Shown here: positions 7,028 to 57,512 of the stretch, in pieces
Numbering within the stretch: the first letter of the stretch is position 1
Layout: each line of letters begins with the position of its first letter
Source: an uncultured Chloroflexia bacterium
GTDB lineage: Bacteria > Chloroflexota > Limnocylindria > Limnocylindrales > CSP1-4
Assembly (NCBI GenBank): GCA_963740825.1
Contig: CAVUFD010000002.1
Location: 968,944-1,032,943, forward strand
Length of the DNA: 64,000 nucleotides
Direction of reading: 5' to 3'
Program-made: the position numbers and the translations under genes
Notes under the pieces: generated by a model
The model's database searches: none
What the model was told of the DNA's origin: nothing
Seen by the model: only the letters and a program-made list of their open reading frames with translations

Positions 7028-7170
7028 AGCTGCACGCCAGGCGTTCACTGCAGCGGTCGAACCGGCGATTCGCACGCCGAGCGTGCAAACCAGCGGTTGT
7101 CGGGCCCAGAACCGGCGAGTGGGTCGCGTGGCGTGCAGCTCAGCGGCGGAGCCGCTGCAGTGAACGCTGG
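7028..7170. repeat. Mosaic of inverted and 50-bp-spaced direct repeats with attC-like core
   Basis: 16-bp IR 7041-7056/7152-7167; 12-bp IR 7028-7039/7129-7140; GAACCGGCGA at 7059 and 7109. Confidence 0.6.
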
Positions 7171-7206
7171 GCGGTCAGCGCTGCTCGACCGCGCCCGAGA
7201 CGCGAC

Positions 7207-7230
7207 GAACCCCGCCGTTGCCGGCGGGTT
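7207..7230 (-). terminator. Stem-loop downstream of the 39-aa small ORF
   Basis: GAACCCGCCG-ttgc-CGGCGGGTTC, perfect 10-bp stem. Confidence 0.7.
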
Positions 7231-7255
7231 CACGCATGGGAGCGAGGAGCAGGGA

Positions 7256-7375
7256 TCAGCCGAACGCGACGTGCGCGACGATCCCGAGCGCGGTGAGGAA
7301 GATCACGAGGAGGAGCAGGAGGGCGGGGAAGACGCCGACCGCGTCGACTTCGAGATATTGGCTCTGTGCGGACAT
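7256..7375 (-). CDS. 39-aa single-TM small protein, below ORF-track cutoff
   Basis: MSAQSQYLEVDAVGVFPALLLLLVIFLTALGIVAHVAFG*; AAAGGAGA SD; downstream hairpin. Confidence 0.75.
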   Translation of the reverse strand: MSAQSQYLEVDAVGVFPALLLLLVIFLTALGIVAHVAFG

Positions 7376-7559
7376 CTGGCGTCTCCTTTCTGGTCCAGAT
7401 CAGCTGGCCGTCGGGGTGGCGGCCGATGACCAGAGATTGCCGCACGGCCGGTCCCGCACCCACCGTCGCGCGCCACGACGACTGGGCCACGAACGACCGC
7501 TCGTGCGATGGACGGATGACGATGTCCGAGGCCCGATGCGCACCGGCGCCAGGAACGGG

Positions 7560-8759
7560 TCAGCTCGCCCAGGCCACGTGCCACACCCGCCACAGGGCCG
7601 CGGGATCGGACAGCGGATCGCCGTGGACGAGGAGGAAGTCCGCCGGCCCGCCCTCGCGGATGACGCCGGCGTCCGGCTCGCCCAGCAGCTCGCCGCCACG
7701 CCAGGTGGCGCTGCCGAGCGCCTCCCACGGCTCGAGCCCGGCGGCAACCAGCTGCTCGACCTCCCAGGCGAGCTGGTTCGCCCGCGTCGAGCCGCCGCCG
7801 AAGTCGGTCCCGGTCGAGATCCGGACGCCGGCCCGATGCGCGATCCCCACCGAGGCCAGCGCCCGCTCGCGCCGCGCGGCCGTCCTCGCCCGGCCCTCGT
7901 CGCTCGCGAAGCGCGGCAGATCGGTGGTCGCGGCGAACGTCTGCCACGACGCCATGACCGACAGGGTCGAGACGAGCCGCACGCCGTTCCGCGCCATGGT
8001 CGCGGCGACCTCATCGTCGAGCTCGAACCCGTGCTCGAGCGCGTCCACGCCCGCCTCGGCCCCCGCGCGCGCCCCGGCGAGGTACCCGGAGTGGGCGGTG
8101 ACCCGCGCACCCCGCGCGTGGACCGCCGCGACCACCGCGCGGAGCGCCTCGACCGGCCACGGTGACGCGTCGAGGTCGGGCCCGTCGAGATAGAGCTTCA
8201 CCAGGTCGGCGCCGTCGTCGAGCTGCGCGATCGCCGCGGCGAGGAGCCCGTCGCCATCGGATGCCTCGATCGACAGCGCCGGCATCAGGCCGCTGGCCAT
8301 GATCCACGTCCCCGCCGCGCGCACGTGCGGGTAGCCGGGCCGGCCCCGCCATCGATCACGAATACCGATTGCGAGTGCCCGCTCGCGCCCGCCGTCCTCC
8401 GGGTCGGCACGCCGCACCGAGCCGACGTCGCGCGCCCAGCGCACGCCCGCCCGGGTCAGCAGCCGCGCGTTCGCCTCGGCGACGGCGAGCAGGCGCGCCG
8501 TTGGGTCCGAGCCGCGGTCGATCCAGTGCGCGCCGCCCGGCATCGTCAGGTGGCTGTGGGCATCGACCATCCCGGGCACGATCGTCGAGCCGGACGCGTC
8601 GACAACCTCGGTCGCTCCGCCATCACCGACCGGGCCTTCGTCGTCGGCGGGACGAATCCAGGCCACGCGCCCGTCATCGACCAGGATCGAAACGCCCCGC
8701 TCCAGCCGGTCGGTCCGCCCGTCGGCGAGCACCCCGTCACGGTAGAGGCGCGAAAACAC
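7560..8759 (-). CDS. Amidohydrolase family protein (imidazolonepropionase/prolidase-like)
   Basis: PGMVDAHSHL, VKLY, TAHS, EHG, GTDFG, G-x-I-x-x-G-x-x-AD. Confidence 0.9.
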   Translation of the reverse strand: MFSRLYRDGVLADGRTDRLERGVSILVDDGRVAWIRPADDEGPVGDGGATEVVDASGSTIVPGMVDAHSHLTMPGGAHWIDRGSDPTARLLAVAEANARLLTRAGVRWARDVGSVRRADPEDGGRERALAIGIRDRWRGRPGYPHVRAAGTWIMASGLMPALSIEASDGDGLLAAAIAQLDDGADLVKLYLDGPDLDASPWPVEALRAVVAAVHARGARVTAHSGYLAGARAGAEAGVDALEHGFELDDEVAATMARNGVRLVSTLSVMASWQTFAATTDLPRFASDEGRARTAARRERALASVGIAHRAGVRISTGTDFGGGSTRANQLAWEVEQLVAAGLEPWEALGSATWRGGELLGEPDAGVIREGGPADFLLVHGDPLSDPAALWRVWHVAWAS

Positions 8760-9324: not shown

Positions 9325-9786
9325 GTGCCGCATGATGTCATCGCCACCTGCCCGGTGTGCTCGGGCGAGCTCGCGGTCACGCGCCTTCGCTGCGGCGATT
9401 GCGGGACCGTCATCGAGGGCGAGTTCGGGGTCGGGCGGTTCGCCCGGCTGACCCGCGAGCAGACGCAGGTGCTCGAGAGCTTCCTCCGCAGCCGCGGCAA
9501 CCTCCGCGACATGGAGCGGGAGCTCGGGATCAGCTACCCCACGGTCCGGGCCCGTGTCGAGGCGCTCATCCGAGCGCTCGGCTTCGGCCCTCGGGACGAG
9601 GGGGAGGCACCGGCCACGGCAGCCGACGACCTCGACACGACCCTGGCGGACGCAGCACAGGCCCTCGCGTCCGCAGCCGAATCCATCCAGGCCGGACGGC
9701 GCGAGATCCTCGAGCAGCTGTCCCGCCACGAGCTGAGCGCCGAGGAGGCCGCGGAGGCCATCCGGGCGCTGGGGAGAACCCGATGA
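9325..9786 (+). CDS. DUF2089 family protein (Zn ribbon + HTH + C-terminal SHOCT-like helix pair)
   Basis: CPVC...CGDC, GNLRDMERELGISYPTVRAR, REILEQLSRHELSAEEA. Confidence 0.9.
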   Translation: MPHDVIATCPVCSGELAVTRLRCGDCGTVIEGEFGVGRFARLTREQTQVLESFLRSRGNLRDMERELGISYPTVRARVEALIRALGFGPRDEGEAPATAADDLDTTLADAAQALASAAESIQAGRREILEQLSRHELSAEEAAEAIRALGRTR

Positions 9787-11015
9787 CCGAGCTGACGTCC
9801 CAGGCCACCACCGTCCGCGAGCTCCCCATGGAGCCGCGCGGCGAGGTGGAGATCCTGCTGACCTCCAGCCGTGTCCGCCTGCGCGGCGTCGACCGCGACG
9901 TGTTCACCGTCCGCAGCCTCGGCGGCGAGGACCTCGAGGACGACTTCGAGATCGAGGGCACTCCGGGCAAGGTCCGGCTGCGCGACAGCGTGACCGGCTT
10001 CAAGCTCGGATCGATCCGGATCCGGACGAACCACCCGCCCGATCTCGAGGTCGAGGTCCCGCGGACGGCCGTCGTGTCGTTGCGCACCCTGAGCGGCGAC
10101 GTCGAGGCGACGGGGACGGCCGGCGAGAGCCGGTGGGCGACAGCGTCCGGTGACGTGCGCGTCCAGGTGGACGGTGGTCCGGTCACGGTCGAGTCGATGT
10201 CGGGCGACGTCGCCGTCGTCGCCACGGCGCCGATCGAGCTGCGCGCCCGGTCTGTGTCGGGCGACCTCGTGGTCAGCGGGCCCAGGTTCGACGCGCTGGC
10301 CGCCTCCTCGACCAGCGGCGACATCCGGGTCGACGCGGCCTTCGGCGACGCGCAGGACCACGTGATCAGCTCGGTCAGCGGCGACGTGGAGCTGACGACG
10401 TCCAGCCCGGTCCGCGTCGACACGCAGTCAGTCACCGGCGACGTCCGTGCCAGCGGGACCCGGTTCGCCGAGGGCGGCCGCGGCCGCCGCACGCTGGTCG
10501 TCGGCGAGGGCACGGTCGCCGTGTCGGTCCGCACGACCTCGGGTGACATCCAACTGCGCGGCGTCGCGGCGACGGACGCGTCGGTGCCCACGCCGCCGGT
10601 CCCGCCGCGGGCGCCCGCCGTCCCGCGCCCACCCGAGACGCCGGTCGCCCCGACCCCGCCGGCCCCGGCGAGCCCGCCGGTTGCGCCGGTCGTCGTGGTC
10701 GCCGAGGCCGAGGCGGCCCCCAACCTGGTGCGCCCGGCCGCACGCAACGCCGAGGACGCCGCGCGCGACGACGCCGGGCCGGACGACACAGCGGCGCCGG
10801 ACGGCGACGAGGCCGCCGGCGACGAGCCCGAGGTGGAGCCCGTCGCCGCGCGCGAGGCGCCGCTGAGCGCCGCGAGCGCGACCGATCGCCGCGAGGCCGC
10901 CAGGCTCGAGATCCTGCGGGCGCTCGAGCGCGGCGACCTCGACATCGAGTCCGCCTCGCACAGGCTCGAGATTCTCGAGGACGCGGGCCCCCGCTTCTTC
11001 CGGGGCTGGTGCTGA
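9783..11015 (+). CDS. DUF4097 (beta-strand repeat) protein with C-terminal SHOCT-like motif
   Basis: Repeated S-x-SGD-V motifs; RLEILRALERGDLDIESA; ATGA overlap. Confidence 0.85.
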   Translation: MTELTSQATTVRELPMEPRGEVEILLTSSRVRLRGVDRDVFTVRSLGGEDLEDDFEIEGTPGKVRLRDSVTGFKLGSIRIRTNHPPDLEVEVPRTAVVSLRTLSGDVEATGTAGESRWATASGDVRVQVDGGPVTVESMSGDVAVVATAPIELRARSVSGDLVVSGPRFDALAASSTSGDIRVDAAFGDAQDHVISSVSGDVELTTSSPVRVDTQSVTGDVRASGTRFAEGGRGRRTLVVGEGTVAVSVRTTSGDIQLRGVAATDASVPTPPVPPRAPAVPRPPETPVAPTPPAPASPPVAPVVVVAEAEAAPNLVRPAARNAEDAARDDAGPDDTAAPDGDEAAGDEPEVEPVAAREAPLSAASATDRREAARLEILRALERGDLDIESASHRLEILEDAGPRFFRGWC

Positions 11016-11016
11016 G

Positions 11017-11472
11017 ATGGGCGTCGACCCGTTCGACGAGGTCCTCCGCCTCGTGTCCGAAGGCCGGCTGACGGCCGAGGAGGCCGCGCCGATCCTCGCC
11101 GCCCTCGACGAGCGCGCCCCGTTCGCCGCGACCGACGGACCGGCCGGGACGCCACCGCCCTCGACGGGTCCCGGGTCGGAGCCGCCGGGCGGCTTCGGGC
11201 CGAACGTGCCGCCGGGATCCGAGCCCGGTGACGCGTCGCGAGCCAAGCGCGGCGGCGGCCCGAGCATCCTGCGCATCGAGGTCACCGACGCCGGCCGGCA
11301 GGTGGTCAACCTGCGCCTGCCGATCGCCGTGGGCAAGTTCGCCCTGGATCGCATCCCGGGCCTCCCCGCCGAACAGGTCACCCGCGTCCGCGAGGCACTG
11401 CTGTCCGGGTACCGCGGGTCCGTGCTCGAGGTCGACGACGAGGGCGACGGCGTGAGGATCGTGCTCGAATGA
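11017..11472 (+). CDS. SHOCT-like (YvlB N-terminal-like) domain protein
   Basis: DEVLRLVSEGRLTAEEAAPIL; LRIEVTD...VNLRLP. Confidence 0.75.
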   Translation: MGVDPFDEVLRLVSEGRLTAEEAAPILAALDERAPFAATDGPAGTPPPSTGPGSEPPGGFGPNVPPGSEPGDASRAKRGGGPSILRIEVTDAGRQVVNLRLPIAVGKFALDRIPGLPAEQVTRVREALLSGYRGSVLEVDDEGDGVRIVLE

Positions 11473-12842
11473 CCGCGCTCACCCTGGGCCGGGTCCGCAC
11501 CCTCCCGGTCCTCCGCTCGCTCGAGGCCCGGGACTTCCGGCTCCTGTGGGCCAGCGAGGCGATCTCCGTCGTCGGCGACCAGTTCCACTTCGTCGCCCTC
11601 TCGTGGCTCGTGATCTCGCTGACCGGCTCGGGCCTCGCCCTGGGCGCCGTGCTCATCGCGATCGCCGTGCCACGAGCGGTCCTGCTGCTGCCGTTCGGCG
11701 TCCTCGCCGACCGCCGACCGTCGAGGACCCTGATGCTCGCCGCGCACCTGATCCGCGGCGCAGTCGTGGGTGCCATCGCGGCGCTGGTCCTGACCGGGAC
11801 CGCGTCGATCCCGATGCTTGCGCTGCTGGGCGCGATCTTCGGCGCCGCCGACGCCCTCTACATGCCCGCCCAGCAGGCATTCCTGCCGCGGACGCTCGAG
11901 GCCGAGCGGCTGCCGTCCGCGAACGCGATGCTCCAGGGGACGTACCAGCTCGCCTCGATCGTCGGGCCGCCGATCGCGGGCGCGGTGATCGCCGTGTCCA
12001 CGACCGGGGTGGCGTTCGCCGTCGACGCGACGTCGTTCGTCCTGGCCGCGATCGTGATCGCGATGATCGGCCGGCCCGGGGCGGGCGTCCGGGCCGCGCT
12101 CGCCGGGCCCGCTCCCGCCGACGTCGCGGCCGCCGAGGCCGAGACTCCCCGAGCCGACGGTTCCGCAGTCGACGTTCCCGCCGACGCGGCGCACGAGCCG
12201 TTCCTCACCGCGATCGCCGGCGGGATCCGGTACGTGCTCGCGGATCGCGCCCTGCTGGTGACCATGGTCATCTCGCTGGTGTTGAACTTCGCGCTCAACG
12301 GACCGGTGCTGGTCGGCATGCCGTGGCTGGCCGACCAGCGGTTCGCCGCGGGCCCGGCGGGCCTCGGCCTGCTGGCGGCCTCGTGGGCCGCGGGCGCGCT
12401 GATCGGGGTGGTCGTGGCGGGCAGCATCCGGCTCGAGCGGCAGGGGCGCATCCTGCTCGGCGCGGTCGTCGTCTGCGGGGTCAGCGAGATCCTCGTCGGC
12501 GTGCTGCCCTCGATCGCCGGCGTGTGGCTGGTGCTCGCGCTGATGGGGGTGGCGATCGGCTACGCGAACATCGTCGCGATCTCGTGGATCCAGGGCCGCG
12601 TCGACCGCGCGATGATCGGCCGCGTGATGAGCCTGGTGATGCTGATGGGCGTCGGGATCACGCCCCTGTCGCTCGCCGTGTCGGGCGCCCTGATCGACCT
12701 CGACGCCACCGGGCTGTTCGTCGGCGCCGGGCTCCTGATCCTGCTCACCGCCGTCGTGTCGGCAGCGGTCGGGTTCGTGCGGCTGTTCGACGCGGCATCG
12801 ACGACGGCAGCGACGGTGTCCAGCCCCGCTCCCGGCCACTGA
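11469..12842 (+). CDS. MFS transporter
   Basis: DFRLLWASEAISVVGD, GVLADRRP, about 12 TM; ATGA overlap. Confidence 0.9.
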   Translation: MTALTLGRVRTLPVLRSLEARDFRLLWASEAISVVGDQFHFVALSWLVISLTGSGLALGAVLIAIAVPRAVLLLPFGVLADRRPSRTLMLAAHLIRGAVVGAIAALVLTGTASIPMLALLGAIFGAADALYMPAQQAFLPRTLEAERLPSANAMLQGTYQLASIVGPPIAGAVIAVSTTGVAFAVDATSFVLAAIVIAMIGRPGAGVRAALAGPAPADVAAAEAETPRADGSAVDVPADAAHEPFLTAIAGGIRYVLADRALLVTMVISLVLNFALNGPVLVGMPWLADQRFAAGPAGLGLLAASWAAGALIGVVVAGSIRLERQGRILLGAVVVCGVSEILVGVLPSIAGVWLVLALMGVAIGYANIVAISWIQGRVDRAMIGRVMSLVMLMGVGITPLSLAVSGALIDLDATGLFVGAGLLILLTAVVSAAVGFVRLFDAASTTAATVSSPAPGH

Positions 12843-12957: not shown

Positions 12958-13770
12958 CTACGCCCATGCTTCCGTGCGGATGGCCTCGATCGGGATGCCC
13001 GCGCCGCCCAGGACGTGTGTCGCGGCGTCGACCAGCGACGGATTGCCGCAGATGAAGGCGAGCGTCGCGCCGGGATCGACGTCGTACGTGGCGATGATGT
13101 CGGGCAGCAGCCCGTCGAGACGCCCGGTCGCGCCGCGCCAGCCCACATTGGCGGCATCGAATGGCCGCGAGACCGCCGGAACGTACGAGATGCGTCCAGC
13201 CGACTCCAACGCAGCGAGGCGCGCTTGCCCGGCGAGATCCGTTGCAAACGAGGCTCCGTGCACGATGACCGGGCGGGTCGCGGGCCGGCCAGCCGGCACG
13301 CCCTGGAGGTGTGTCTCGAGGATTGACAACAGAGGCGCGATCCCCGTGCCGGTACCCACGAGGAGCCGCCGTCTCGGGTCGGTCACATCGGCCGCAAACA
13401 GGCCCTTCGGTGGCCCGAGCCGAAGCCGGGCTCCGCGGTGCAGCTCCCAAAGCCGCGGCGTCAGCGCCCCGTCCGCAACGAGCCGAACGAGGAACTCGAG
13501 AGCATCGCCTTCATCCTGTGGGGACGAGGTTGAGTACGGGCGCTGGACGAAGCCGGTGCCTCCCTGGAGGCCGAGGGCGAAGTACTGGCCTGCCCTGAAT
13601 GAGGGGATGCCGCCGTCGGGTCGCACGAGGAGGCGGACGATCGTCGCGCCGACCGGCTCCCGATTGACGAGGGTCGCGTTCGGCTCCGTTGTTCCGGCCG
13701 ATCGCAGCCGCGGGGCGAGCGACGGGCGGCCGACGGTCTCGGACCGCTGATCGTGCATCCCGGCGCGCAT
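12958..13770 (-). CDS. Ferredoxin-NADP(+) reductase-like FAD/NAD(P) oxidoreductase
   Basis: FRAGQY, RPYSTSS, GTGTGIAP, FICGNP. Confidence 0.9.
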   Translation of the reverse strand: MRAGMHDQRSETVGRPSLAPRLRSAGTTEPNATLVNREPVGATIVRLLVRPDGGIPSFRAGQYFALGLQGGTGFVQRPYSTSSPQDEGDALEFLVRLVADGALTPRLWELHRGARLRLGPPKGLFAADVTDPRRRLLVGTGTGIAPLLSILETHLQGVPAGRPATRPVIVHGASFATDLAGQARLAALESAGRISYVPAVSRPFDAANVGWRGATGRLDGLLPDIIATYDVDPGATLAFICGNPSLVDAATHVLGGAGIPIEAIRTEAWA

Positions 13771-13771
13771 G

Positions 13772-14062
13772 TCAGGCGAGGGGTGCAAGCTCGTCGACGA
13801 CGGCCCGCGCTGCGTCGGCATCGGTGAACCAGGCGGCGTCGACCCAGGCGAAGTCGCGCCACTCGGGTCGCAGGTCGCGCTCGGGGACGATCGCGTCATT
13901 GGGGCAGACCGGGCGGCATGCCCCGCACTCGATGCAGCTCTCGGGGTCCACGTACATCTTGCGGTCGACCGCCAGGTCGCCCCAGATGCAGTCCACGGGA
14001 CACACGGAGACGCACGACTGGTCGGAGTGGTCGACGCACGGGGCGGCGATGACGTAGGCCAT
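13772..14062 (-). CDS. FdxA-type (7Fe-like) ferredoxin
   Basis: MAYVIAAPCVD...SCVSVCPVDCI...CIECGACRPVCP; GAGGAG SD. Confidence 0.92.
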   Translation of the reverse strand: MAYVIAAPCVDHSDQSCVSVCPVDCIWGDLAVDRKMYVDPESCIECGACRPVCPNDAIVPERDLRPEWRDFAWVDAAWFTDADAARAVVDELAPLA

Positions 14063-14144
14063 GAGAACGGCTCCTCGAGGCGGCTGCGATCCGTGGATGC
14101 GGCGCAGCCCTCTGTCTCGTAGCGGAGCGCATGCCCCGCGAGCC

Positions 14145-15545
14145 TCAGGATTCCTCGCCGACCCCGGCCTCTCGTGTGACCACGCTGTGGCTTCTCTCAT
14201 CCGCGTCTCGGCCGGCGGAGCCGGCAGGGGCCATCGCGCGCAGGACGACCGTGAAGCGCGCGCCGCCTCCGGCGGGCGAGCTCGCCTCGATGCTGCCGCC
14301 GTGTGCCTCCACGATGCGTCGCGCGATCGCCAGCCCCAGCCCCGTGCCACCCGAGCCGTGGCGCGTGGTGCCCGGCAGCCGGGTGAACGGCTGAAAGATC
14401 CGCTCGAGCTCCGCGGTCGGAATGCCCGGTCCGCCGTCCTCGACGTCGATCGTCACGCTGCGCCCCATGGTCAGGACGCGGACCGTGACCGGCGCGCCAG
14501 CGGGCGAGTGGTCCACCGCGTTGTCGATGAGGACGAGCAGGACCTGGACGATGCGGTCCGGGTCGGCCATCGACCAGGCCGCGCCTTCGCCCGCGTCGAC
14601 GTTGAGTGGCACGCCTCGTTCGGCGGCCATGGCCGCCGCTCCGCGGACGGTTTCGCGGGCAATCGAGGCGACGTCGACGGGCACCGGCGTGATCGTCGTC
14701 CGCATCTCGTCCCACGCCGATAGTTGCAGCAGGTCTCCGACAAGGCCGCCGAGCCGGTCGGACTCGCCGATGATGTCGGTGAGGAGCGGACCGCCGTCGG
14801 ATTCGACCAGGTCCTCACGCTGCAGCACCTCGGCATTGGCACGGATCAACGCGGCGGGTGTCCGAAGCTCGTGGGACGCGTCCGCAACGAACCGTCGCTG
14901 TGCGGCGAATCCCTCCCGGATGGGGCCGAGCGCCCGGTCGGTGACGAGCAGCGTGATCAGCGCGGCGGCGATCAGTCCCATCGCCCCGACGGTCACGACG
15001 GCGAGCACGAGGCTGCGCGACTGGCTGTCGTGCAGGTCGAGGACGAATCCGCCCTGGACGAACCCGACGATGGCGCCGTTGCGGATCACAGGAACGGTGA
15101 GCAGGCGGAAGCTGTGGCCACCTGCCTCGATCGTCCGCAGGTCTTCGCCGGCGGTCTTCGCTCCGGCGAGGACCTTCGCATCCGGCAGGCCCGCGATCGT
15201 CCGACCCGAGGGGTTCTGGACAACCTTGCCGGTTGGGTCGAGCACGAGCAGGAAGGTGTCCGCCGCAGCCGGGGGACGCTCGTCGGCCTCCGGGGTCTCG
15301 GTGCGATCCTCACCGTTCGTCGCTGTCCCGCCGTCGGTGGCCGACGTCTCCGCCGTCACGCCCGCCGCCTGGGCCGCGACCGCCGCCCGGAGCGCGTGGT
15401 CCACATCGGCATCGAGGGCGGCGAGGCCCATGATCGCCGTCGCGGAGCCCACCCCCACGACGAGCAGCGCCAGCAGGCCGAGCGTGACCGCGAACAGGCG
15501 CCGCCTGGTCCGGCGGACGAGCCGCTCGGAATGGCCGATCGCCAC
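14145..15545 (-). CDS. Membrane sensor histidine kinase (HisKA/HATPase)
   Basis: Two TM, FVADASHELRTP, NAVDH, DGGPGI, GTGLGLAI. Confidence 0.95.
   Translation of the reverse strand: MAIGHSERLVRRTRRRLFAVTLGLLALLVVGVGSATAIMGLAALDADVDHALRAAVAAQAAGVTAETSATDGGTATNGEDRTETPEADERPPAAADTFLLVLDPTGKVVQNPSGRTIAGLPDAKVLAGAKTAGEDLRTIEAGGHSFRLLTVPVIRNGAIVGFVQGGFVLDLHDSQSRSLVLAVVTVGAMGLIAAALITLLVTDRALGPIREGFAAQRRFVADASHELRTPAALIRANAEVLQREDLVESDGGPLLTDIIGESDRLGGLVGDLLQLSAWDEMRTTITPVPVDVASIARETVRGAAAMAAERGVPLNVDAGEGAAWSMADPDRIVQVLLVLIDNAVDHSPAGAPVTVRVLTMGRSVTIDVEDGGPGIPTAELERIFQPFTRLPGTTRHGSGGTGLGLAIARRIVEAHGGSIEASSPAGGGARFTVVLRAMAPAGSAGRDADERSHSVVTREAGVGEES
14185..14203 (-). promoter_or_regulatory. Candidate response-regulator site, copy 1 (upstream of ferredoxin)
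   Basis: CTGTGG-cttct-CTCATCCG; 15/19 identical to 16277-16295. Confidence 0.5.
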
Positions 15546-15549
15546 CGCG

Positions 15550-16224
15550 TCAGCCCTCGGCCTTGAGCGTGTACCCGACCCCGCGCACGGTCCGCAGACG
15601 GGTCGCCCGGTCGAGCTCGCCGAGCTTGCGCCGAAGGTAGGACACGTAGAGGTCGACCACGTTCGAATAGACGTCGGGCTCGGCGCCCCAGACCTGGTCG
15701 AGGATCTGCTGGCGGGTCACCACCTGGCCGGCATGCCGGATGAAGAAGCCGAGCAGGGCGAACTCGCGAGCCGACAGATCCACGGTCCGATCGCCGACGA
15801 CCGCGACGTGGCGGAGGCCGTCGAGGGCGAGGTCGCCCGCGGCGAGGCGTCCGTTGACCGCGGGAGCGGGCCGCCGGCCCAGGGCGCGCACGCGGGCCAG
15901 CAGCTCGGCGAACGCGAACGGCTTGGCGAGGTAGTCGTCGGCGCCGGCGTCGAGGCCGGCGACCCGGTCATCGACGGTGCCCAGCGCCGTGAGCATCAGC
16001 ACCGGCGCCGAAACCCCCTTGGCTCGGAGGAGCCGCAGCACGGTGACCCCGTCGATGTCCGGCAACAGTCGGTCAAGGACGATGACCTCGGGCTCGCTCT
16101 GCGTCGCCAGCGCGATGGCGCCGACCCCGTCCGGCGCGACGTCGACGATGTGGCGCTCGGCGACCAGGACGCGCTTGATCAGCGCGGCCATCTTCGGTTC
16201 GTCTTCCACCACGAGCACATGCAT
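15550..16224 (-). CDS. OmpR/PhoB-family response regulator
   Basis: VLVVEDE, VLDRLLP, GADDYLAKPF, LRTVRGVGY. Confidence 0.95.
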   Translation of the reverse strand: MHVLVVEDEPKMAALIKRVLVAERHIVDVAPDGVGAIALATQSEPEVIVLDRLLPDIDGVTVLRLLRAKGVSAPVLMLTALGTVDDRVAGLDAGADDYLAKPFAFAELLARVRALGRRPAPAVNGRLAAGDLALDGLRHVAVVGDRTVDLSAREFALLGFFIRHAGQVVTRQQILDQVWGAEPDVYSNVVDLYVSYLRRKLGELDRATRLRTVRGVGYTLKAEG

Positions 16225-16276
16225 CGGCTGCAGTCTGCGGGCCCGCGGGGGCAGGGTCGAGGGCCATTGGCCCTGT

Positions 16277-16295
16277 CTGTGGAACTTCTCATCCG
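16277..16295 (-). promoter_or_regulatory. Candidate response-regulator site, copy 2 (divergent promoter region)
   Basis: CTGTGG-aactt-CTCATCCG. Confidence 0.5.
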
Positions 16296-16367
16296 GGCCA
16301 TACCGGTCGTTTCGGGCGACGGCGCGACGATCGGAGCCGTTACCTCCCTGTACGGAGTCCGTCACCG

Positions 16368-16649
16368 ATGGTTCAGCGCGTCGCCCTGTTCATCGCCAGC
16401 CTTACCGCAGCCCTGGCCCTGGCGGCCGGCCTTGCCCTTAGCGGTCTCGCACCCGCCGCCGAACCGGCCCCGGTCATTGCCGAGGTGGCGCCGGCCGCCA
16501 CGGACGCTGCGCCCGAGCCGACCGTCCAGGTCGACACCGTCTACGTCACCCCGAAGGTCAAGCCCAAGCACGTCACGGTGAACCGGACCGTCAGGTCGGG
16601 CTCGACGGGCGAGGGAGAGCACGAGGGCGGGGGCGGGGACGACCGATGA
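16368..16649 (+). CDS. Small secreted or anchored protein with acidic/His tail
   Basis: N-terminal hydrophobic segment; ends RSGSTGEGEHEGGGGDDR; ATGA-coupled to next gene. Confidence 0.75.
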   Translation: MVQRVALFIASLTAALALAAGLALSGLAPAAEPAPVIAEVAPAATDAAPEPTVQVDTVYVTPKVKPKHVTVNRTVRSGSTGEGEHEGGGGDDR

Positions 16650-17092
16650 GGGAGCCCCGATCGGTGCGCGAAGATCCAGCCCGACCCCGAGACAGGTCGC
16701 GTCCGTCACCCGCGCGCCCCGTTCCGGCCCGCCCGGCCGGGGCACCGCGATCTGCCGCTCTGCCGAGGCCCGAGCCCGTTCGCAATCGGCCGGACCCAGG
16801 ATCCATGAGAATGCTGATCGTGTTCGGCGGGATCGCCTCCGCGTCGGCGCTCGCGGCGGCCATGATTCCATCGGTCGCGCCTCCGACCGACGCCGCTCGC
16901 GGTGGGTCGGCGCTGACCGCCGATCAGGCGATCGGCACGGTGGCGCCCGCACCATCGGTACGCCACGTCACCCGCTACGTCGTGCTGAAGCCCGGTCAGA
17001 CGGCACCACCCAACGCGCCCGTCCTCGTCCGCCCCACGCCGACGCCACGGGTCACCGTCGTCACCCGGACCCGACAGTCCGGGAAGCCGTGA
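16646..17092 (+). CDS. Small single-TM Pro/Thr-rich protein
   Basis: TM MLIVFGGIASASALAAAMI; ends VTVVTRTRQSGKP; coupled on both sides. Confidence 0.7.
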   Translation: MREPRSVREDPARPRDRSRPSPARPVPARPAGAPRSAALPRPEPVRNRPDPGSMRMLIVFGGIASASALAAAMIPSVAPPTDAARGGSALTADQAIGTVAPAPSVRHVTRYVVLKPGQTAPPNAPVLVRPTPTPRVTVVTRTRQSGKP

Positions 17093-18015
17093 TGGTCGCG
17101 AGCGACGTCGGCGGTGCCGCGTCTGCGGAACGCCCGATGATGGGTGGCCAGGTCTCGGTGCACCTGCGCGGCGTTCCCATGGGAGTCGCCGGGGCCGACC
17201 CGGCGGAGCGGGTCCTCGACCGGATCGCGGCGTGGGCGCATCGCCTCACGCGCTTCGAGCCCACCTCGGACCTGATGCGCCTCAACGGGGCAGGCGGTGC
17301 ATCCGTCCGCGTCGGCCCAACGCTGACCGCGGTGCTCGACTGGGCACGCGAGCTCGAGGGACGGACCGACGGGTACATCGATGTCGCGATGCTCGATGCC
17401 CGCGTCGCGGCTGAGGCTGGTGAGCCGATCGAACCTCCGGCAGCTGCTGCCAGACGCTGGTCGCTTCGCCGGTTGCCCCGTGGAGCGATCGTGGAGCGCC
17501 CGCCCGGCCTCCAATTCGACCTCGACGGCGTCGCGAAGGGGTGGCTTGCCGACCGCGCCCTGGCCATCGCGCCGGGGCAATCGGCGATGGTCGATGCCGA
17601 CGGCGACATCGCAGCTCGGATCGCCAGCGGTGACTCGTGGGCCGTCGGCGTGGCGGATCCGCGCGATCATCCGGACGGGCTGCTCGCGGTCGTGCGGCTG
17701 GCCGCGCCCGGCTCGTGCGGCACGATTGGGCTCGCCACGTCCGGGATCAGCGTCCACCGCTGGGATCGGGCGACCGGCCCCGCCCACCACCTTATCGATC
17801 CCGCGACCTGGCGGTCGGTCCAGACGGACGTCGTCCAGGCGACCGTCCTCGCGGAGAATGCGCGCCTGGCGGAGGGGTTCGCCAAAGTCGCGGTGATCTC
17901 CGGCGCCGCCGATGCCTTCGAGCTGGCGAGCCGCCCCGGCGTCCACGGGCTCCTTGTGCTCACGGCGACGGGCGAGGTCCGCGCGAGCGAAGGGATGGGC
18001 CGATGGCTGGCATGA
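17089..18015 (+). CDS. apbE: FAD:protein FMN transferase, no signal peptide visible
   Basis: TRFEPTSDL, DLDGVAKG, ATSG, HHLIDP. Confidence 0.92.
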   Translation: MMVASDVGGAASAERPMMGGQVSVHLRGVPMGVAGADPAERVLDRIAAWAHRLTRFEPTSDLMRLNGAGGASVRVGPTLTAVLDWARELEGRTDGYIDVAMLDARVAAEAGEPIEPPAAAARRWSLRRLPRGAIVERPPGLQFDLDGVAKGWLADRALAIAPGQSAMVDADGDIAARIASGDSWAVGVADPRDHPDGLLAVVRLAAPGSCGTIGLATSGISVHRWDRATGPAHHLIDPATWRSVQTDVVQATVLAENARLAEGFAKVAVISGAADAFELASRPGVHGLLVLTATGEVRASEGMGRWLA

Positions 18016-18692
18016 CGTATCGGGGCTTCGACTCGCGCACCTCGCTCACGCGCTGGGGCCTCGCGGCGGTGGCCATCGGGATCGTCGGTGGGGCGACGCT
18101 CCCGGGTGCGCTCGGTGGTGTCGCCGCCGTGGTGGACGGCAACCGGGCGAGTCTGCCGTGGCTGTTCGAGCGGTTGTTCGCGTTGCTCGCCTACCTGGCC
18201 TTCACCGGATCTGTGGTCTACGGCCTGCTGCTATCGACGAAGGTGCTCGACCACCTCGCCCATCGACCCGTCTCATTCCTGCTCCACAAGGACCTCGCCG
18301 CGATCGGCGTGGGCCTCGCCGGAATCCACGGAATGCTCCTCGGACTCGACCACACCGTGCCCTTCTCGTTGGCGCAGATCCTGGTGCCTGGCATCGCTCC
18401 CCACGCGACGCTCGCCGTGGCGTTCGGCCAGGTCGCCCTCTACCTCGCGCTCATCGTGACTGGCAGCTTCTACGTCCGTCGCCGAATCGGCCATCGGGCC
18501 TGGCGGGCGCTCCACTATCTGACATTCCTCGCCTTCATCGGCGCGACCGTCCACGGCCTTGCGGCGGGGACTGACAGCGCAGCGGGGTGGGCGCAGGGCA
18601 TGTACCTCGCTGCAGCGACGGTGGTCGCATTCCTGCTCGTCTATCGGATCGTTGTATCGATCGGTCAGCGGCTCGTGTCAGCCCCAGCGTGA
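18012..18692 (+). CDS. Ferric-reductase-like (MsrQ-like) di-heme b membrane protein
   Basis: Four TM His (LHKDL, IHGM, LHYL, VHGL); WRALHY; AGTD. Confidence 0.85.
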   Translation: MTYRGFDSRTSLTRWGLAAVAIGIVGGATLPGALGGVAAVVDGNRASLPWLFERLFALLAYLAFTGSVVYGLLLSTKVLDHLAHRPVSFLLHKDLAAIGVGLAGIHGMLLGLDHTVPFSLAQILVPGIAPHATLAVAFGQVALYLALIVTGSFYVRRRIGHRAWRALHYLTFLAFIGATVHGLAAGTDSAAGWAQGMYLAAATVVAFLLVYRIVVSIGQRLVSAPA

Positions 18693-24158: not shown

Positions 24159-24548
24159 TCAGCGTCGGACGAGCGTCCGGAACAGGTGCTCGAGGGTCGC
24201 CGCGGCGTCGTCGGTCAGGCCGGTATGGACCTCCGACGGCTGGATGATCGTCGACGACGGCGCGACCAGCCAGTGGAAGCGTTCGCCCATCGAGAGCGCG
24301 GCGATGGGGCCGGCGGCTCCGTCGCCATCGGCGATCCGGACGATCCCGTCGAGGTGCGCCCGGACGTTGTCGGGATCGCAGTCGGGAGCGAGCGCGGCCA
24401 GCACCGCTGGATCCAGCTCGACCTGCGCGCCCAGGAACCGATGGGGCCGGGACATCAGCACGATCCCCGCGTTGAACGCCTCGCCCCTGTCCACGCGCGG
24501 CACCACCCGCACGATCGCGTACTCGAACGGCTTACGCGGCCCGGGCAC
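24159..24548 (-). CDS. DUF3037 domain protein
   Basis: FEYAIVRVVPRVDRGEAFNAG, ERFHWLVAPSSTIIQ. Confidence 0.9.
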   Translation of the reverse strand: MPGPRKPFEYAIVRVVPRVDRGEAFNAGIVLMSRPHRFLGAQVELDPAVLAALAPDCDPDNVRAHLDGIVRIADGDGAAGPIAALSMGERFHWLVAPSSTIIQPSEVHTGLTDDAAATLEHLFRTLVRR

Positions 24549-25308
24549 GCTCGGCCTCCTCCACGAACGCCCGCGGGGCCTCGAGCCGCTGGACGAGATA
24601 GTCCACGTAGGCACGGCGGTGGGCATCGGGATCCGCGAGTCCGGACTCGGGCTGCAGCCAGTCGTCGGGGATGGCGGCCGCGAGCCCCTGGAGCAGCGCC
24701 GGCGTGACCATCGGCGCGAGGCGGGCGTCCGCCGCCTCGATCGACGACGCGAACGGCAGCAGCACGTGGTCCCGGATCGGATGGAACGGGCGCCGGGCAT
24801 GCTCCGCCGGATCGCGCCAGCTGTGGTGGATGTACAGCGCCGATCCGTGGTCGATCAGGTGAAGCCGACGATGCCACACGATGAGGTTCGGGTTGCGCGG
24901 CGTCCGGTCGACGTTGGTCGTGTAAGCGTCGAGCCAGACGATGGCGGCGGCCAGGTCCGGGTCCGGTGCCGGGCCCACGGCCGGCGCGAAGGCCAGGGCG
25001 CCGGGCAGGAAGTCGAGGCCGATGTTGGTGCCCGCCGACCGTTCGAGCAGGTCCTGGATCTCGCGGTTCGGCTCGGCCTTGGCGAGGGTGGCGTCGAGCT
25101 CGACGAGCACCTGGTCGGGCACGGGAAGCCCCAGATGGCGCGCGATCTCGCCGGCCAGCAGCTCCGCCACCAGCGCCTTCCGGCCGTGCCCCGCGCCGAG
25201 GAGCTTGACCACGTAGAGCCCGTCGTCGTCGGCCTCCACGAGCGCGGGCAAAGACCCGCCCTCGCGCAGGGGCGTCACGTACCGGGTCGCCGTCACGGTG
25301 CGGAGCAT
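24532..25308 (-). CDS. HipA-like family kinase
   Basis: LREGGSLP, YVVK, NVDRTPRNPN, LIDHG; TACACT-N7-ATG. Confidence 0.9.
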   Translation of the reverse strand: MLRTVTATRYVTPLREGGSLPALVEADDDGLYVVKLLGAGHGRKALVAELLAGEIARHLGLPVPDQVLVELDATLAKAEPNREIQDLLERSAGTNIGLDFLPGALAFAPAVGPAPDPDLAAAIVWLDAYTTNVDRTPRNPNLIVWHRRLHLIDHGSALYIHHSWRDPAEHARRPFHPIRDHVLLPFASSIEAADARLAPMVTPALLQGLAAAIPDDWLQPESGLADPDAHRRAYVDYLVQRLEAPRAFVEEAERARAA

Positions 25309-25366
25309 GAGCCGGAGTGTAGGTCCGTGGTCACGGCCCTTGTGCCGCGCGGCGTTCAGGACTATC

Positions 25367-25380
25367 GTTGCACGTGCAAC
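25367..25380. promoter_or_regulatory. Perfect 14-bp palindrome, MarR-like operator candidate
   Basis: GTTGCACGTGCAAC in a divergent intergenic region. Confidence 0.55.
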
Positions 25381-25435
25381 TATTGCCGCGAGCGGCCCGC
25401 AGTCGATCGGCCGCGACGGAGAACACCGACCCACC

Positions 25436-25834
25436 ATGGACACCGCCATCCACCTGGACCCGGCCATTCACGACGCCCTCGACCACAGCCAGACCGTCGA
25501 CATCAGCACGACCGGCCGGCGGACGGGCGAGCCCCGCCGGATCGAGATCGCCCTCCACAACATCCGCGGGCGCCTGGTCATCAGCGGCCGCCCCAGCCAC
25601 CGGACGCGGGCCTGGATCTACAACCTCGAGGCCGATCCCCGGCTGACCGTCCACCTCAAGCGCGGCGTGCAGGCGGATCTCGCGGGAACCGCACGGGTCG
25701 TCACCGACCCCGAGGAGCGCCGGGCGTTGCTGGTCGACGTCGCGCGCGCCTGGAACCGCACCGACGTCGAGCCGATGATCGAGCTCAGCCCGCTCATCGA
25801 GGTCCACATCCCGGGCTACGGTCCCGAGGTCTAG
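25436..25834 (+). CDS. Split beta-barrel deazaflavin(F420)-dependent oxidoreductase-like protein
   Basis: TTGRRTGEPR, WIYNLEADP. Confidence 0.75.
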   Translation: MDTAIHLDPAIHDALDHSQTVDISTTGRRTGEPRRIEIALHNIRGRLVISGRPSHRTRAWIYNLEADPRLTVHLKRGVQADLAGTARVVTDPEERRALLVDVARAWNRTDVEPMIELSPLIEVHIPGYGPEV

Positions 25835-30423: not shown

Positions 30424-30618
30424 ATGCTCACGATGTCGCTCATCGCAGAGGCCATCCAGGCAGATCGCGAGCGCGAGTTCCGTAACCGGCGGCCGCGCGT
30501 TGCGGGCGTCCCGTCGGGGCTTCGGCATCCGCGCCTGGAGCTCGAGCGGTTCGCGAACCGACGTCAGCCCGCCGAGACCGCCGTGGCCGGCACACCGGCG
30601 CTCGCCGGCTCCCGGTAG
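30424..30618 (+). CDS. 64-aa small protein, candidate WYL target
   Basis: MLTMSLIAEAIQADREREFR; GAGGTG SD; overlaps 3' end of WYL gene convergently. Confidence 0.55.
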   Translation: MLTMSLIAEAIQADREREFRNRRPRVAGVPSGLRHPRLELERFANRRQPAETAVAGTPALAGSR

Positions 30619-31571
30619 CGGGCGACAGTCTCGGCCGCCAGCGCGGCGATCTCGGCCCGTAGCTCCGGTGGCTCGAGCACCTCGATCGCGCCGCCGAGCG
30701 CGAGCAGGCGGCCGGCAACCTCGCGGGGCCAGTCGAGGGTCACCCGGATCCGGCGCCACGAATCGGGCTCCGGATCCGGCTCCTCGACGGCCAACGCGAG
30801 CACCGGGGCATCGATGACGTCCTCGAGCCAGCGGGTCGATGTGCGGCGGACGCGAAGGGTCACGTCGATGCGCGGCTGGTCGCGCTCGTAGGCGGTGATC
30901 GATTCGGACCAGTACGTTGCGAGGTCGAAACCCGCGGGGCGGACCGCCTTCTCCGGCAGCGGCTCGACGCCGCGGGCACGCGAGACGCGGTAGGTCCGGA
31001 TCTGGCCGTCGTGGCCGCCGACGAGGTACCACACGCCGGCCTTGAGCACGAGGCCGAGCGGGTCCAGGGTCCGGGTGACGATCGTGTCCGAGCGCGCGTA
31101 GTCGAGCTCCAGGCGCTGGCCGTCCCAGACGCACTGCGCGATCGCTGCCAGGTGGGGCACGTCCTCGCCGGCCCGGAACCAGCCGGCGGCGTCGAGGTGG
31201 AAGCGCTCGAGCAGGCGGCTGGCGCGCCCGCGCAGCTCCGTCGGCAGCGCCGCGAGGACCTTGAGCCGCGCCGCCGCGACGACCGTGCCGAGCCCGAGCT
31301 CGGCGGCCGGCCCGGGCAGGCCCGACAGGAACAGCGCGTCGGCCTCCTCGGTGGTCATGCCGGTCAGCCGGGTGCGGTAGCCGTCGACGAGGCGGATGCC
31401 GCCGTGGGGGCCGCGTTCCGCGAAGATCGGGACCCCGGCGGCGCCCAGCGCCTCGACGTCGCGGTGGATCGTGCGGACGGAGACCTCGAGCTCGCGGGCG
31501 AGCTCCGACGCGGTCATCCCGCCGCGCGCCTGGAGCAGCAGTAGGAGCGAGACGAGCCTCGACGCGCGCAT
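30564..31571 (-). CDS. YafY-like HTH + WYL transcription regulator
   Basis: MRASRLVSLLLLL, ELEVSVRTIHRDVEAL, PLGLVLKAGVWYLV, YRVSR. Confidence 0.95.
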   Translation of the reverse strand: MRASRLVSLLLLLQARGGMTASELARELEVSVRTIHRDVEALGAAGVPIFAERGPHGGIRLVDGYRTRLTGMTTEEADALFLSGLPGPAAELGLGTVVAAARLKVLAALPTELRGRASRLLERFHLDAAGWFRAGEDVPHLAAIAQCVWDGQRLELDYARSDTIVTRTLDPLGLVLKAGVWYLVGGHDGQIRTYRVSRARGVEPLPEKAVRPAGFDLATYWSESITAYERDQPRIDVTLRVRRTSTRWLEDVIDAPVLALAVEEPDPEPDSWRRIRVTLDWPREVAGRLLALGGAIEVLEPPELRAEIAALAAETVARYREPASAGVPATAVSAG

Positions 31572-31577
31572 GGCCAG

Positions 31578-31608
31578 ATGCTAGCAAAAGGCGCCACTCG
31601 GTGTCAGG
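31578..31608 (-). promoter_or_regulatory. WYL gene leaderless promoter with second copy of the 19-bp site
   Basis: CCTGACA-N5-TGGCGCC (31608-31590), then TAGCAT-N6-ATG. Confidence 0.6.
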
Positions 31609-33732: not shown

Positions 33733-34578
33733 CTACGTCGACCCTGTGCTCTGGTCGCGCAGGTAGCGCTCGATCTCGGTGATCAGGTCGTCGCCGGCGG
33801 GCAGCCGCGACTCGTCGACCATCGACTCCAGGCGCTCGACGTACTGGCGCGTGGTGTCGTCGGCGGCGGTCGCGGCGTCCAGGCGGATGCGCAGCTGACG
33901 CGCCTCGTCGGCGAGGTCGCCGCGGGGCAGCTCCACGTCGAGATGGCGCTCGATCGCGCGCATCAGCTCCACCGACGCCAGCGCGTACGGGCCCTGGACG
34001 TAGTGGGGGATCTGGGCGAAGTAGCCGACGGCCGGGATGCCCGCGTCCGAGACCGCCATCTCGAGCATCGACAGGGCGGCCGACGGCACGCGCAGGATGC
34101 CCGTCGGGCCGGCGGTGACGCCGCCACGCAGCAGGCCGGCCTCGGATTCCGTGCCCAGGATCGGCACCGGACGCGTGTGCGGCACCGCGGCGGGGATGGC
34201 GCCGAGGCTGATCCAGCCGCGCGCGCCGAGGCCCTGGAGGATCGTGACCACCGAGTCGGCGAGCAGGTGCCACCGGTCGTCCGGCTCGCTGCCGGTCAGC
34301 ACGAGCAGGTCGAGACCGCTGAACCGGGCGAGGCGGAGCGACACCTCGGGCCAGGCGAGCGACGTGAGGCGGCCGTCGCGGATCTCGAGGGTGGGGCGGC
34401 GCGACCGATAGTCGAACAGCTGGTCGGGGTCGAAGGTGGCGATCGGCTCGCCCTCGTCGCCGAGTATCGACAGCACGCTGGTCGCCGCCGTGCCCGCGTC
34501 GACCCAGCCGTCGAAGGCCGCCAGCACGATCGGATCGACGATCGCCGGCTGCGGCTCGGTGAGGTGGTAGAGCGCCAT
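33733..34578 (-). CDS. PAC2 family protein (proteasome-assembly-chaperone-like)
   Basis: AAFDGWVDAG, LFDYRSRRP, VPHTRP, AQIPHY. Confidence 0.9.
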   Translation of the reverse strand: MALYHLTEPQPAIVDPIVLAAFDGWVDAGTAATSVLSILGDEGEPIATFDPDQLFDYRSRRPTLEIRDGRLTSLAWPEVSLRLARFSGLDLLVLTGSEPDDRWHLLADSVVTILQGLGARGWISLGAIPAAVPHTRPVPILGTESEAGLLRGGVTAGPTGILRVPSAALSMLEMAVSDAGIPAVGYFAQIPHYVQGPYALASVELMRAIERHLDVELPRGDLADEARQLRIRLDAATAADDTTRQYVERLESMVDESRLPAGDDLITEIERYLRDQSTGST

Positions 34579-34679
34579 GGGCGAAGGATAACGGGGGCCG
34601 GTCGGCCCTCGACCGGGCACGGGATCGGGTGCATCCTGAGCGGGTGTCGGGGGTGTCCTCCGAGCTATGGGGTGTGCCG

Positions 34680-51046: not shown

Positions 51047-51050
51047 GCGC

Positions 51051-51081
51051 GACTGGCCTCCTCGGGGTGAGGAGGCCAGTC
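51051..51081. promoter_or_regulatory. 13-bp perfect hairpin covering the hmgA SD
   Basis: GACTGGCCTCCTC-ggggt-GAGGAGGCCAGTC; minus-strand GAGGAGG is 10 nt from ATG. Confidence 0.7.
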
Positions 51082-51091
51082 TACCGACGCG

Positions 51092-52365: not shown

Positions 52366-52435
52366 CGGGATCCTCGGGTGTCGCGCGACCCTCCGGCCGC
52401 GTCACCGAGTATGGAGCCGGCTCGGGCAGATTCGT

Positions 52436-53554: not shown

Positions 53555-53557
53555 TGT

Positions 53558-57509: not shown

Positions 57510-57512
57510 GGC

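Follow-up and report, generated by a model that had tools for sequence, protein, structure and literature searches.

A gene cluster at positions 12958–18692 of a 64,000-nucleotide stretch of DNA from an uncultured bacterium of the class Limnocylindria (Chloroflexota; contig CAVUFD010000002.1 of assembly GCA_963740825.1), referred to here as the window, encodes a regulated membrane redox module. Its invariant unit is made up of four genes, those for two small proteins (sp1 and sp2), an ApbE-family protein and a cytochrome b; the gene content, order, coupling and conservation are seen directly and the topology of the products is predicted. We propose that this cassette is an outward electron chain in which an acceptor is held outside the membrane by sp1 and sp2, ApbE works in the cytoplasm and a two-component system exerts control, a tentative reading to which we give somewhat less than an even chance. 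The window has a G+C content of 72%, and the cluster is laid out as follows.

12958–13770, minus strand: FNR-type flavoprotein reductase, ~270 amino acids, with Pfam FAD_binding_6 and NAD_binding_1 domains.
13772–14062, minus strand: FdxA-type 7Fe (3Fe-4S + 4Fe-4S) ferredoxin, 96 amino acids, with a Pfam Fer4 match.
14145–15545, minus strand: sensor histidine kinase, with Pfam HisKA and HATPase_c domains.
15550–16224, minus strand: OmpR/PhoB-family response regulator, with Pfam Response_reg and Trans_reg_C domains.
16225–16367, no strand: divergent control region of 143 bp between the regulator gene and sp1.
16368–16649, plus strand: sp1, 93 amino acids, predicted single-pass membrane protein with its N-terminus inside.
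16646–17092, plus strand: sp2, 148 amino acids, predicted single-pass membrane protein.
17092–18015, plus strand: ApbE-family protein, 307 amino acids, Pfam PF02424 at 126.1 bits.
18003–18692, plus strand: predicted FRD-type (MsrQ/NOX/STEAP-like) di-heme cytochrome b, 229 amino acids, six helices and four histidines.

All eight reading frames described in an earlier note, which was made from the letters of the window alone, are present, and the tight operon coupling that it reported on both strands was borne out. On the plus strand, read from sp1 through sp2 and ApbE to cytochrome b, the sp1 and sp2 genes overlap as ATGA, those for sp2 and ApbE as TGATG, and those for ApbE and the cytochrome by 13 nt, or as ATGA should 18012 be the start of the cytochrome. 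The 226-amino-acid form of the cytochrome gave no match in an exact look-up because the gene call starts at 18003. On the minus strand, which runs from the regulator through kinase and ferredoxin to FNR, 4 nt separate the regulator and kinase genes, 1 nt separates those of the ferredoxin and FNR (FNR start at 13770) and a gap of 82 nt lies between kinase and ferredoxin.

The conservation of this arrangement was surveyed in 80 Limnocylindria loci (cytochrome identity 56–92%) and 11 distant loci, almost all from metagenome-assembled genomes (MAGs) titled Chloroflexia, Chloroflexota or Candidatus Limnocylindrales/Limnocylindria; counts given over 74 loci refer to those with enough flanking sequence. 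The host is a member of the Chloroflexota and not an actinobacterium. The genes for sp1, sp2 and ApbE lie upstream of the cytochrome gene in 72 of the 74 Limnocylindria loci, the flanks of the 80 loci differ among themselves, and overlap between the ApbE gene and the cytochrome gene is seen in the window as well as at every related locus. Ten distant loci, with cytochromes of 38–43% identity, a G+C content of 59–70% and other flanks, keep the same four-gene order of an acidic-tailed small protein, a basic proline-rich small protein, an ApbE without a signal peptide and the cytochrome; the eleventh, on a truncated contig, has ApbE and cytochrome only. The arrangement recurs in dozens of genomes and is therefore far beyond chance. 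One metagenome scan found no relatives. A contig titled as a Gemmatimonadaceae MAG (L006, CAWHHI010000006.1) carries a cytochrome 87% identical to that of the window, is syntenic with the Limnocylindria loci and has probably been mis-binned.

The two small proteins are products of real genes: compared with five close relatives, substitutions fall mainly on the third position of codons (for example 9/6/29 and 7/3/30) and gaps are, with one exception, multiples of three, which is true also of the Arg/Pro-rich N-terminal tail of sp2. Neither protein has a Pfam match, hence neither has an FMN_bind domain, and the 160 homologues of sp2 are all annotated as hypothetical and lack Pfam domains. The statement of the earlier note that the small proteins contain neither FMN_bind nor an [ST]GA[ST] site therefore holds, as both the Pfam search and the motif scan came back empty. 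sp1 has a conserved strand, VQVDTVYV.P (16524–16547), and an acidic C-terminal tail of Gly, Glu, His and Asp (16608–16646). Tails rich in D, E, H and Y end sp1 in every lineage, and in the distant cassettes this architecture recurs with much longer tails, strikingly acidic examples being EEEYEEEYEEEYEEEYEVEEPEEGDSD and REHEAREHHEDKAKEARDHEDDDD. sp2 begins with a basic, Arg/Pro-rich part, predicted to be cytoplasmic, that ends in RPDP.P[LM]R (juxtamembrane RPDP at 16787–16798); a transmembrane helix at residues 54–77 follows, and then a segment predicted to face outward with the family motif YV.L.PGQTAPP (LKPGQTAPP at 16985–17011 in the window). Its C-terminal end reads T-R-Q-S-G-K-P (17069–17089), and the extreme C-terminal T-x-[QP]-S-G is invariant among relatives; ends in distant loci read TRQSGG, TKPSGKP, TRTS, TRMS and TRAS, with T-R-x-S replacing the terminal motif in three distant lineages (L085, L089 and L090). 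In both proteins the conserved parts are thus predicted to lie outside, beyond a transmembrane helix whose N-terminus is inside. The AlphaFold2 model of sp2 contains the transmembrane helix only, with the conserved tail extended at a pLDDT of 76–85, and because of this the tail may be a peptide that folds onto a partner. The same model led us to reject a cryptic folded domain in sp2; a Tat signal was rejected as there is no twin-arginine motif, and paralogy of sp1 and sp2 was rejected as hhalign aligns the transmembrane helix alone. One distant lineage has a longer sp2 of 208–233 amino acids (L087:615–1286; L091:5125–5757; L094:7001–7702), with two copies of YVYL.PG..AP, a long Pro/Thr-rich spacer and then the conserved T-[RK]-P-S-G end.

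The cytochrome has six hydrophobic helices by both the hydropathy profile and an AlphaFold2 model (pLDDT 84). Four transmembrane histidines had been noted before and are confirmed as His95 and His109 in helix 3 and His171 and His184 in helix 5 (codons at 18285, 18327, 18513 and 18552), spaced 14 and 13 residues apart; all four are invariant among 40 homologues and almost so among 89. The family comprises 3035 representatives at E ≤ 0.001, and PF01794 was matched in 59 of 89 sampled members (E ≤ 0.001). The top five Foldseek matches are STEAP2, SpNOX (three entries) and STEAP1, with probabilities of 0.99–1.0 but E values of 0.02–0.2 and TM-scores of 0.38–0.48, and a profile search against the PDB found SpNOX at E 0.026. 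Taken together, sequence and model suggest that the protein belongs to the FRD superfamily and binds two hemes. In one distant lineage (L090) the cytochrome (P0175) is fused at its C-terminus to Pyr_redox_2, Rubredoxin_C and Fer2_BFD ([2Fe-2S]) domains and still sits behind ApbE and two small genes. It follows that the C-terminus of the cytochrome, and with six helices also the N-terminus, would be cytoplasmic, and the fusion speaks for NAD(P)H/Fe-S input to cytochromes of this type. A second kind of variant is seen in P0149, P0188, P0211, P0224 and P0241, which carry an insert of ~170 amino acids in the first outer loop, between the first two helices, that includes an acidic His-rich stretch such as DDEHEDDEHEDGKHEDDEHEGDEQHEQ. 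P0224 (L095:904–2073) lies directly after an ApbE that has no signal peptide and carries AE..AK (see below), with a PCYCGC protein and a P-type ATPase fragment nearby. Since the acidic insert stands in the outer loop, the acidic element that sp1 supplies in trans would belong at the outer face of the cytochrome.

The ApbE-family protein exceeds its Pfam cut-off of 25.6 bits by far, covers profile positions 1–258 of 266 and can be aligned to the solved enzymes of Salmonella, Treponema pallidum and Vibrio cholerae, with ApbE/Ftp entries in the PDB matched at E about 1e-9. It keeps DLDGVAKG (the D-L-x-G-x-[AG]-K-G motif) and HHLIDP (17785–17802), which contains the catalytic histidine, His257, of the V. 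cholerae enzyme (PMC12052999); HHLIDP was found in 76 of the 85 cassette ApbEs carrying the motif, and none was seen in the frame read at four further loci. The motif of metal site 1 is different. Where Salmonella has ADGWDT, T. pallidum ADALAT and V. cholerae ADGLAT, the window has AEGFAK (17869–17886), and alignment to the solved enzymes places Glu for Asp and Lys for Thr at the ligand positions. These Asp and Thr ligands are D280 and T284 in the Escherichia coli enzyme, and in mutagenesis of T. pallidum Ftp_Tp the metal ligands were the sole residues critical for transfer (PMC4767422). The E..K signature occurs in 67 cassette ApbEs, every distant one read included, and the loci with AE..AK include the window, L050, L079, L083, L085–L091, L094 and L095. 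We therefore regard AE..AK as a probable clade signature that may reflect altered metal dependence or altered activity.

One explanation for this clade-wide replacement of AD..(A/D)T is that the protein is no longer a transferase, but keeps its FAD and binds to the cytochrome from the cytoplasmic side as a flavin entry subunit that stands in for the dehydrogenase of NOX and STEAP. The loss of the transfer-critical ligands (PMC4767422) would fit this model, as would the exposed isoalloxazine ring of ApbE-bound FAD (PMC12052999), the position of ApbE as the only cytoplasmic protein in every cassette and the lack of a target motif in the cluster proteins. However, HHLIDP and DLDG.AKG are fully kept, which argues for retained catalysis, and the idea is drawn from two substitutions. 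We know of no ApbE that serves as a redox subunit, and we consider this explanation distinctly unlikely.

ApbE was described in the earlier note as lacking a signal peptide, and this is the case throughout. Hydrophobic segments are missing from the window protein (maximum 19-residue hydropathy 1.53), its reading frame allows no upstream extension, and examination of ApbE at 80 Limnocylindria and 11 distant loci revealed neither an export signal nor a transmembrane helix. There are documented cases of ApbEs in the cytosol (PMC12052999). Export of ApbE by a programmed frameshift fusion with sp2 was considered and rejected, as a slippery site is lacking and the junction is not constant between loci. 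Frameshifts do break the ApbE or regulator gene in several long-read MAG loci (ApbE in L005, about 7091–8000; both genes in L086), and one gene call, P0124, is a chimera of the ApbE C-terminus and the cytochrome; these are assembly indels or pseudogenes and not fusions.

The search for a flavinylation target was extended to the whole window, where the sole match to the motif is DQSTGST at the C-terminus of a PAC2-family open reading frame (33733–34704, minus strand), whose product is proteasome-assembly-chaperone-like and whose match is most likely coincidental. FMN_bind and related domains were absent from 20 further open reading frames of the window, and FMN_bind, DUF2271 and DUF3570 from the precomputed Pfam lists of the related loci. 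Candidate sites within the cluster were rejected: SGST in the window sp1 (16596–16607) and GGAT in the cytochrome N-terminus are not conserved, SGGT of the kinase lies within its ATP-binding domain, and none of the cytoplasmic T13, S78/T79 and S92 of the cytochrome, considered as FMN sites, is invariant across the wider family.

These results bear on the proposal of the earlier note that the chain ends in an extracytosolic flavinylated peptide, that is, that ApbE flavinylates a small protein on its extracytosolic part and the modified peptide acts as terminal carrier outside the membrane. ApbE and the small proteins are always encoded together and translationally coupled, ApbE is able to modify short terminal peptides (PMC12052999), the T-x-[QP]-S-G end of sp2 (T-R-x-S in the three distant lineages) is invariant, and 4% of genomes with apbE are 'orphans' that lack a known substrate (PMC8238504). 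Set against this, the predicted topology conflicts with the proposal: ApbE is cytoplasmic in every cassette, with no export signal or transmembrane helix at any of the loci examined, and the conserved segments of sp1 and sp2 are predicted to lie on the other side, beyond the helix. In addition, D-x-x-[ST]-G-A-[ST] is found in neither small protein, no site is conserved, and the sp2 tail has no hydroxyl residue where the motif puts the acceptor. The proposal did not stand in this form, and we now think it quite improbable.

The ferredoxin has cysteines at positions 9, 17, 21, 25, 43, 46, 49 and 53 and scores 94 bits against FdxA_Actino, whose cut-off is 125; it is for this reason called FdxA-like and not an equivalog. 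The NCBIfam matches of the FNR (MmoC, BenC, Fpr and Fre) are likewise all under cut-off. Ferredoxin and FNR genes both follow the kinase gene in 55 of the 71 Limnocylindria loci and the ferredoxin gene alone in four, so that a ferredoxin is present in 59; 12 loci have neither, and neither was found in any distant cassette. FNR is the least conserved (41–85% identity across loci) and most often lost component, being absent from two of the closest relatives (L006 and L008) and only 50% identical in a third (L005). Because of these absences, ferredoxin and FNR are an accessory, lineage-specific input and not part of the invariant system, and the earlier description of a self-contained chain could not be upheld. 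The route that was proposed with it, from NAD(P)H through FNR and ferredoxin to cytochrome b, fares better: it is plausible and is backed by fusions, but it is accessory to the invariant unit. PF00175 is fused to PF01794 in 1437 of 1797 MsrQ-like clusters (PMC8238504), and by analogy the separate FNR gene can be seen as a split version of this fusion.

Another possibility is that ferredoxin and FNR do a different job, for example a general supply of electrons from NADPH to ferredoxin under the same two-component system, and that the cytochrome is fed by the quinol pool or another donor. This would account for the loci and distant cassettes without the two genes, for the loss or replacement of FNR in the closest relatives and for the 82-nt gap to the kinase gene, and MsrQ-type proteins can take quinols (PMC8238504). 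Where present, however, the two genes always follow the kinase gene, with position and orientation unchanged, and fusions of cytochromes of the same family to NAD(P)H reductase/[2Fe-2S] modules, and also to PF00175 domains (PMC8238504), make donors of this kind the norm for the fold. We judge this possibility unlikely, though it deserves to be taken seriously.

The kinase has two transmembrane helices (14–46 and 176–209) that enclose an extracytoplasmic sensor domain of ~130 amino acids with the conserved motif DTFLLVLDP..G..NPSG. The regulator is 71–94% identical across loci, and its best NCBIfam matches (RppA, CopR/CusR-type, PhoB and HprR) are all under cut-off. Regulator and kinase genes are divergent from the ApbE operon in 71 of 71 Limnocylindria loci and in two distant lineages, and a two-component system adjoins the cassette in the distant loci L085, L086 and L089; the available flanking sequence of L088 and L091–L094 shows none, and for L087 the contig stops a short way before the cassette. 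A comparison of 56 aligned intergenic regions revealed a conserved block of ~46 bp (16254–16299), GGTCGAGGGCC-N5-GGCCCTGTCTGTGGA-N2-TTCTCATCCGGGCC, which keeps a fixed distance to both start codons and holds a short GGGCC/GGCCC palindrome. This block is a candidate operator for the regulator or a candidate promoter element. A GGAG ribosome-binding site precedes sp1. An Rfam search of the control region found no family, and thus no riboswitch or other known RNA, the region contains no sigma-70 consensus, and a scan for promoter and terminator consensus sequences gave nothing useful. The adjacent two-component system and the shared intergenic block support the earlier view that the system is regulated and that its two strands are linked. 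As for whether the two halves would prove unlinked in relatives, the neighbourhood survey gave a divided answer: ferredoxin and FNR are unlinked in a minority of loci, and the two-component system stays linked.

The same layout could mean that the cluster is an envelope oxidative-damage response like HprRS-MsrPQ of E. coli, with oxidants as the signal for the two-component system and the cytochrome feeding an unlinked extracytoplasmic repair reductase and not a metal. As in that system, regulator and kinase genes point away from an operon whose last gene is for an MsrQ-like cytochrome, and the regulator matches the CopR/CusR/HprR group (165 bits to the HprR model, under cut-off). Fre, an FNR-family flavin reductase, is a partner of E. 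coli MsrQ, which also fits. However, no surveyed locus has a gene for an MsrP-like molybdoenzyme, the cytochrome reaches only 17 bits against the MsrQ equivalog (cut-off 130), and ApbE and the acidic and basic small proteins are left unexplained. On this evidence a damage response of this type is very unlikely.

For the outward chain that we favour, the following sequence of events can be proposed. Electrons would enter from the cytoplasm, in most Limnocylindria from NAD(P)H through the flavin of FNR to the 7Fe ferredoxin, which would pass them on singly; among other lineages the donor in one would be the fused reductase/[2Fe-2S] domain. The two hemes would carry the electrons across the membrane to its outer face, where the acceptor would be held by the acidic tail of sp1 and the basic, extended peptide of sp2. 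The acceptor is most likely a metal cation, for example Fe(III) or Cu(II), on the model of the FRD metalloreductases of eukaryotes, a guess made because of the FRD precedent (Fre, STEAP), the D/E/H composition of the tails and occasional metal-homeostasis neighbours, namely FUR and NicO in L089 and the PCYCGC protein and P-type ATPase fragment in L095. ApbE would act in the cytoplasm, where it may place FMN on a non-canonical site of a partner or may hold a flavin that bridges ferredoxin and inner heme. The two-component system would sense an envelope signal and probably controls both operons via the conserved block in the shared promoter region.

A more specific form of the outward chain can be put forward, although we think it unlikely. 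The cytoplasmic ApbE, with its remodelled metal site, would attach FMN covalently to a non-canonical site on the cytochrome or on sp1/sp2, and the whole would be a bacterial 'split NOX/STEAP' in which this bound FMN is the bridging flavin, fed by ferredoxin and reducing an outside metal held by the acidic tail. If this is true, a non-canonical ApbE substrate and a flavinylated complex of an FRD-type cytochrome would each be seen for the first time.

Several points weigh against the outward chain itself. No conserved D-x-x-[ST]-G-A-[ST]-like site occurs in any of the eight cluster proteins, and a canonical ApbE substrate may be encoded beyond the 64 kb of the genome that are visible. The catalytic competence of ApbE is uncertain because the transfer-critical metal ligands are replaced by Glu and Lys. 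Ferredoxin and FNR are missing from 12 of 71 Limnocylindria loci and from all distant cassettes, and FNR from two of the closest relatives. The window cytochrome scores 16.6 bits against PF01794, under the Pfam cut-off of 28. The case for a metal acceptor, made from tail composition, analogy to FRD proteins and anecdotal neighbours, is thin, and the topology of the cassette proteins is predicted.

Other genes lie close to the cluster. An MFS_3 (EntS-like) transporter gene adjoins it in the window (11469–12842) and in many Limnocylindria loci, and in a distant lineage an MFS_3 gene follows the cytochrome gene by 18 nt on the same strand (L091:7492–8814; also L092, L093 and L094). The transporters are only 27% identical between lineages; they were not counted as part of the system, and the link may be coincidental. 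Upstream of the window MFS gene, 9357–11472 encodes a DUF4097 'toastrack' protein and a SHOCT-like small protein, and in L002 and L004 the same block begins with a DUF2089 zinc-ribbon regulator, making a conserved three-gene unit. Elsewhere in the window, genes for aromatic-amino-acid breakdown stand together at 49823–62316 (a weak homogentisate-dioxygenase-like match, a fumarylacetoacetase-family hydrolase and a 4-hydroxyphenylpyruvate-dioxygenase-like protein), a HipA_2 kinase is encoded at 24532–25467 and a WYL-domain regulator at 30564–31580.

ApbE-dependent flavinylation is a known bacterial way to wire electrons past the cytoplasm, and on the current view its substrates carry one common short motif and sit outside the cell. 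The cassette is a conserved case of a gap in this picture, in that a cytoplasmic ApbE with an altered metal site is tied to a NOX/STEAP-like cytochrome and two unannotated small proteins, in a host class, the Limnocylindria, that is abundant and uncultured in soil and freshwater. Solving it could bring to light an as yet undescribed ApbE substrate or a role of the fold outside catalysis, define a minimal bacterial metalloreductase and give a function to two unannotated protein families, and the fusions make the electron path testable with few recombinant proteins.

Our literature search found no paper describing this cassette, and four known systems are near to it. In E. coli, hprRS-msrPQ combines an FRD-family cytochrome b with a divergent OmpR-family two-component system and a soluble FNR-family donor, Fre. 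The cassette resembles it in the divergent two-component system and in the FNR-family flavoprotein as proposed cytoplasmic donor, but has no MsrP-type molybdoenzyme and is far under the cut-off for the MsrQ equivalog; conversely, the E. coli locus encodes neither ApbE nor a ferredoxin, and small acidic and basic subunits are missing from it too. The NOX/STEAP/Fre1 metalloreductases of eukaryotes and bacteria provide the best-matching transmembrane fold, with the same His pairs 14 and 13 apart; their electrons come from NAD(P)H in the cytosol and reach an acceptor on the outside by way of a flavin and two hemes, which is the path proposed here. In the cassette, however, the dehydrogenase domain is not fused and the flavin component would be an ApbE-family protein in place of an FNR-like FAD domain, and the likeness is weak in its sequence and structure scores (E 0.02–0.2, TM-score 0.38–0.48). 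A third parallel is found in Klebsiella pneumoniae, whose cytoplasmic ApbE attaches flavin to a soluble fumarate reductase (PMC12052999). Like the cassette protein, this ApbE has no signal peptide and acts inside the cell, but its substrate carries a canonical FMN_bind motif; here none is encoded nearby and the partner is a membrane cytochrome.

Of the kinds of system described so far, the MsrQ-like flavinylation-associated cluster comes closest (Meheust et al., 2021, eLife, PMC8238504; PMC11334425). Such clusters also have apbE beside a PF01794-type six-helix, two-heme cytochrome with an associated FNR-type NAD-binding module, and outward electron transfer, possibly for iron reduction, has been proposed for them. 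They are mainly actinobacterial and encode a secreted FMN_bind substrate with [ST]GA[ST] (PMC8238504), whereas the cassette is found in Chloroflexota and has no FMN_bind, DUF2271 or DUF3570. The survey that described them first kept only flavinylation components, whether ApbE or FMN-binding proteins, with signal peptides (PMC8238504). The cassette differs further in that its ApbE is cytoplasmic and has an altered metal site, in that two unannotated small membrane proteins stand in the place of the substrate, and in that the reductase is a separate gene paired with a 7Fe ferredoxin. It extends the MsrQ-like kind by two families of small proteins that have no annotation and by a change of the ApbE metal site that is specific to the clade.

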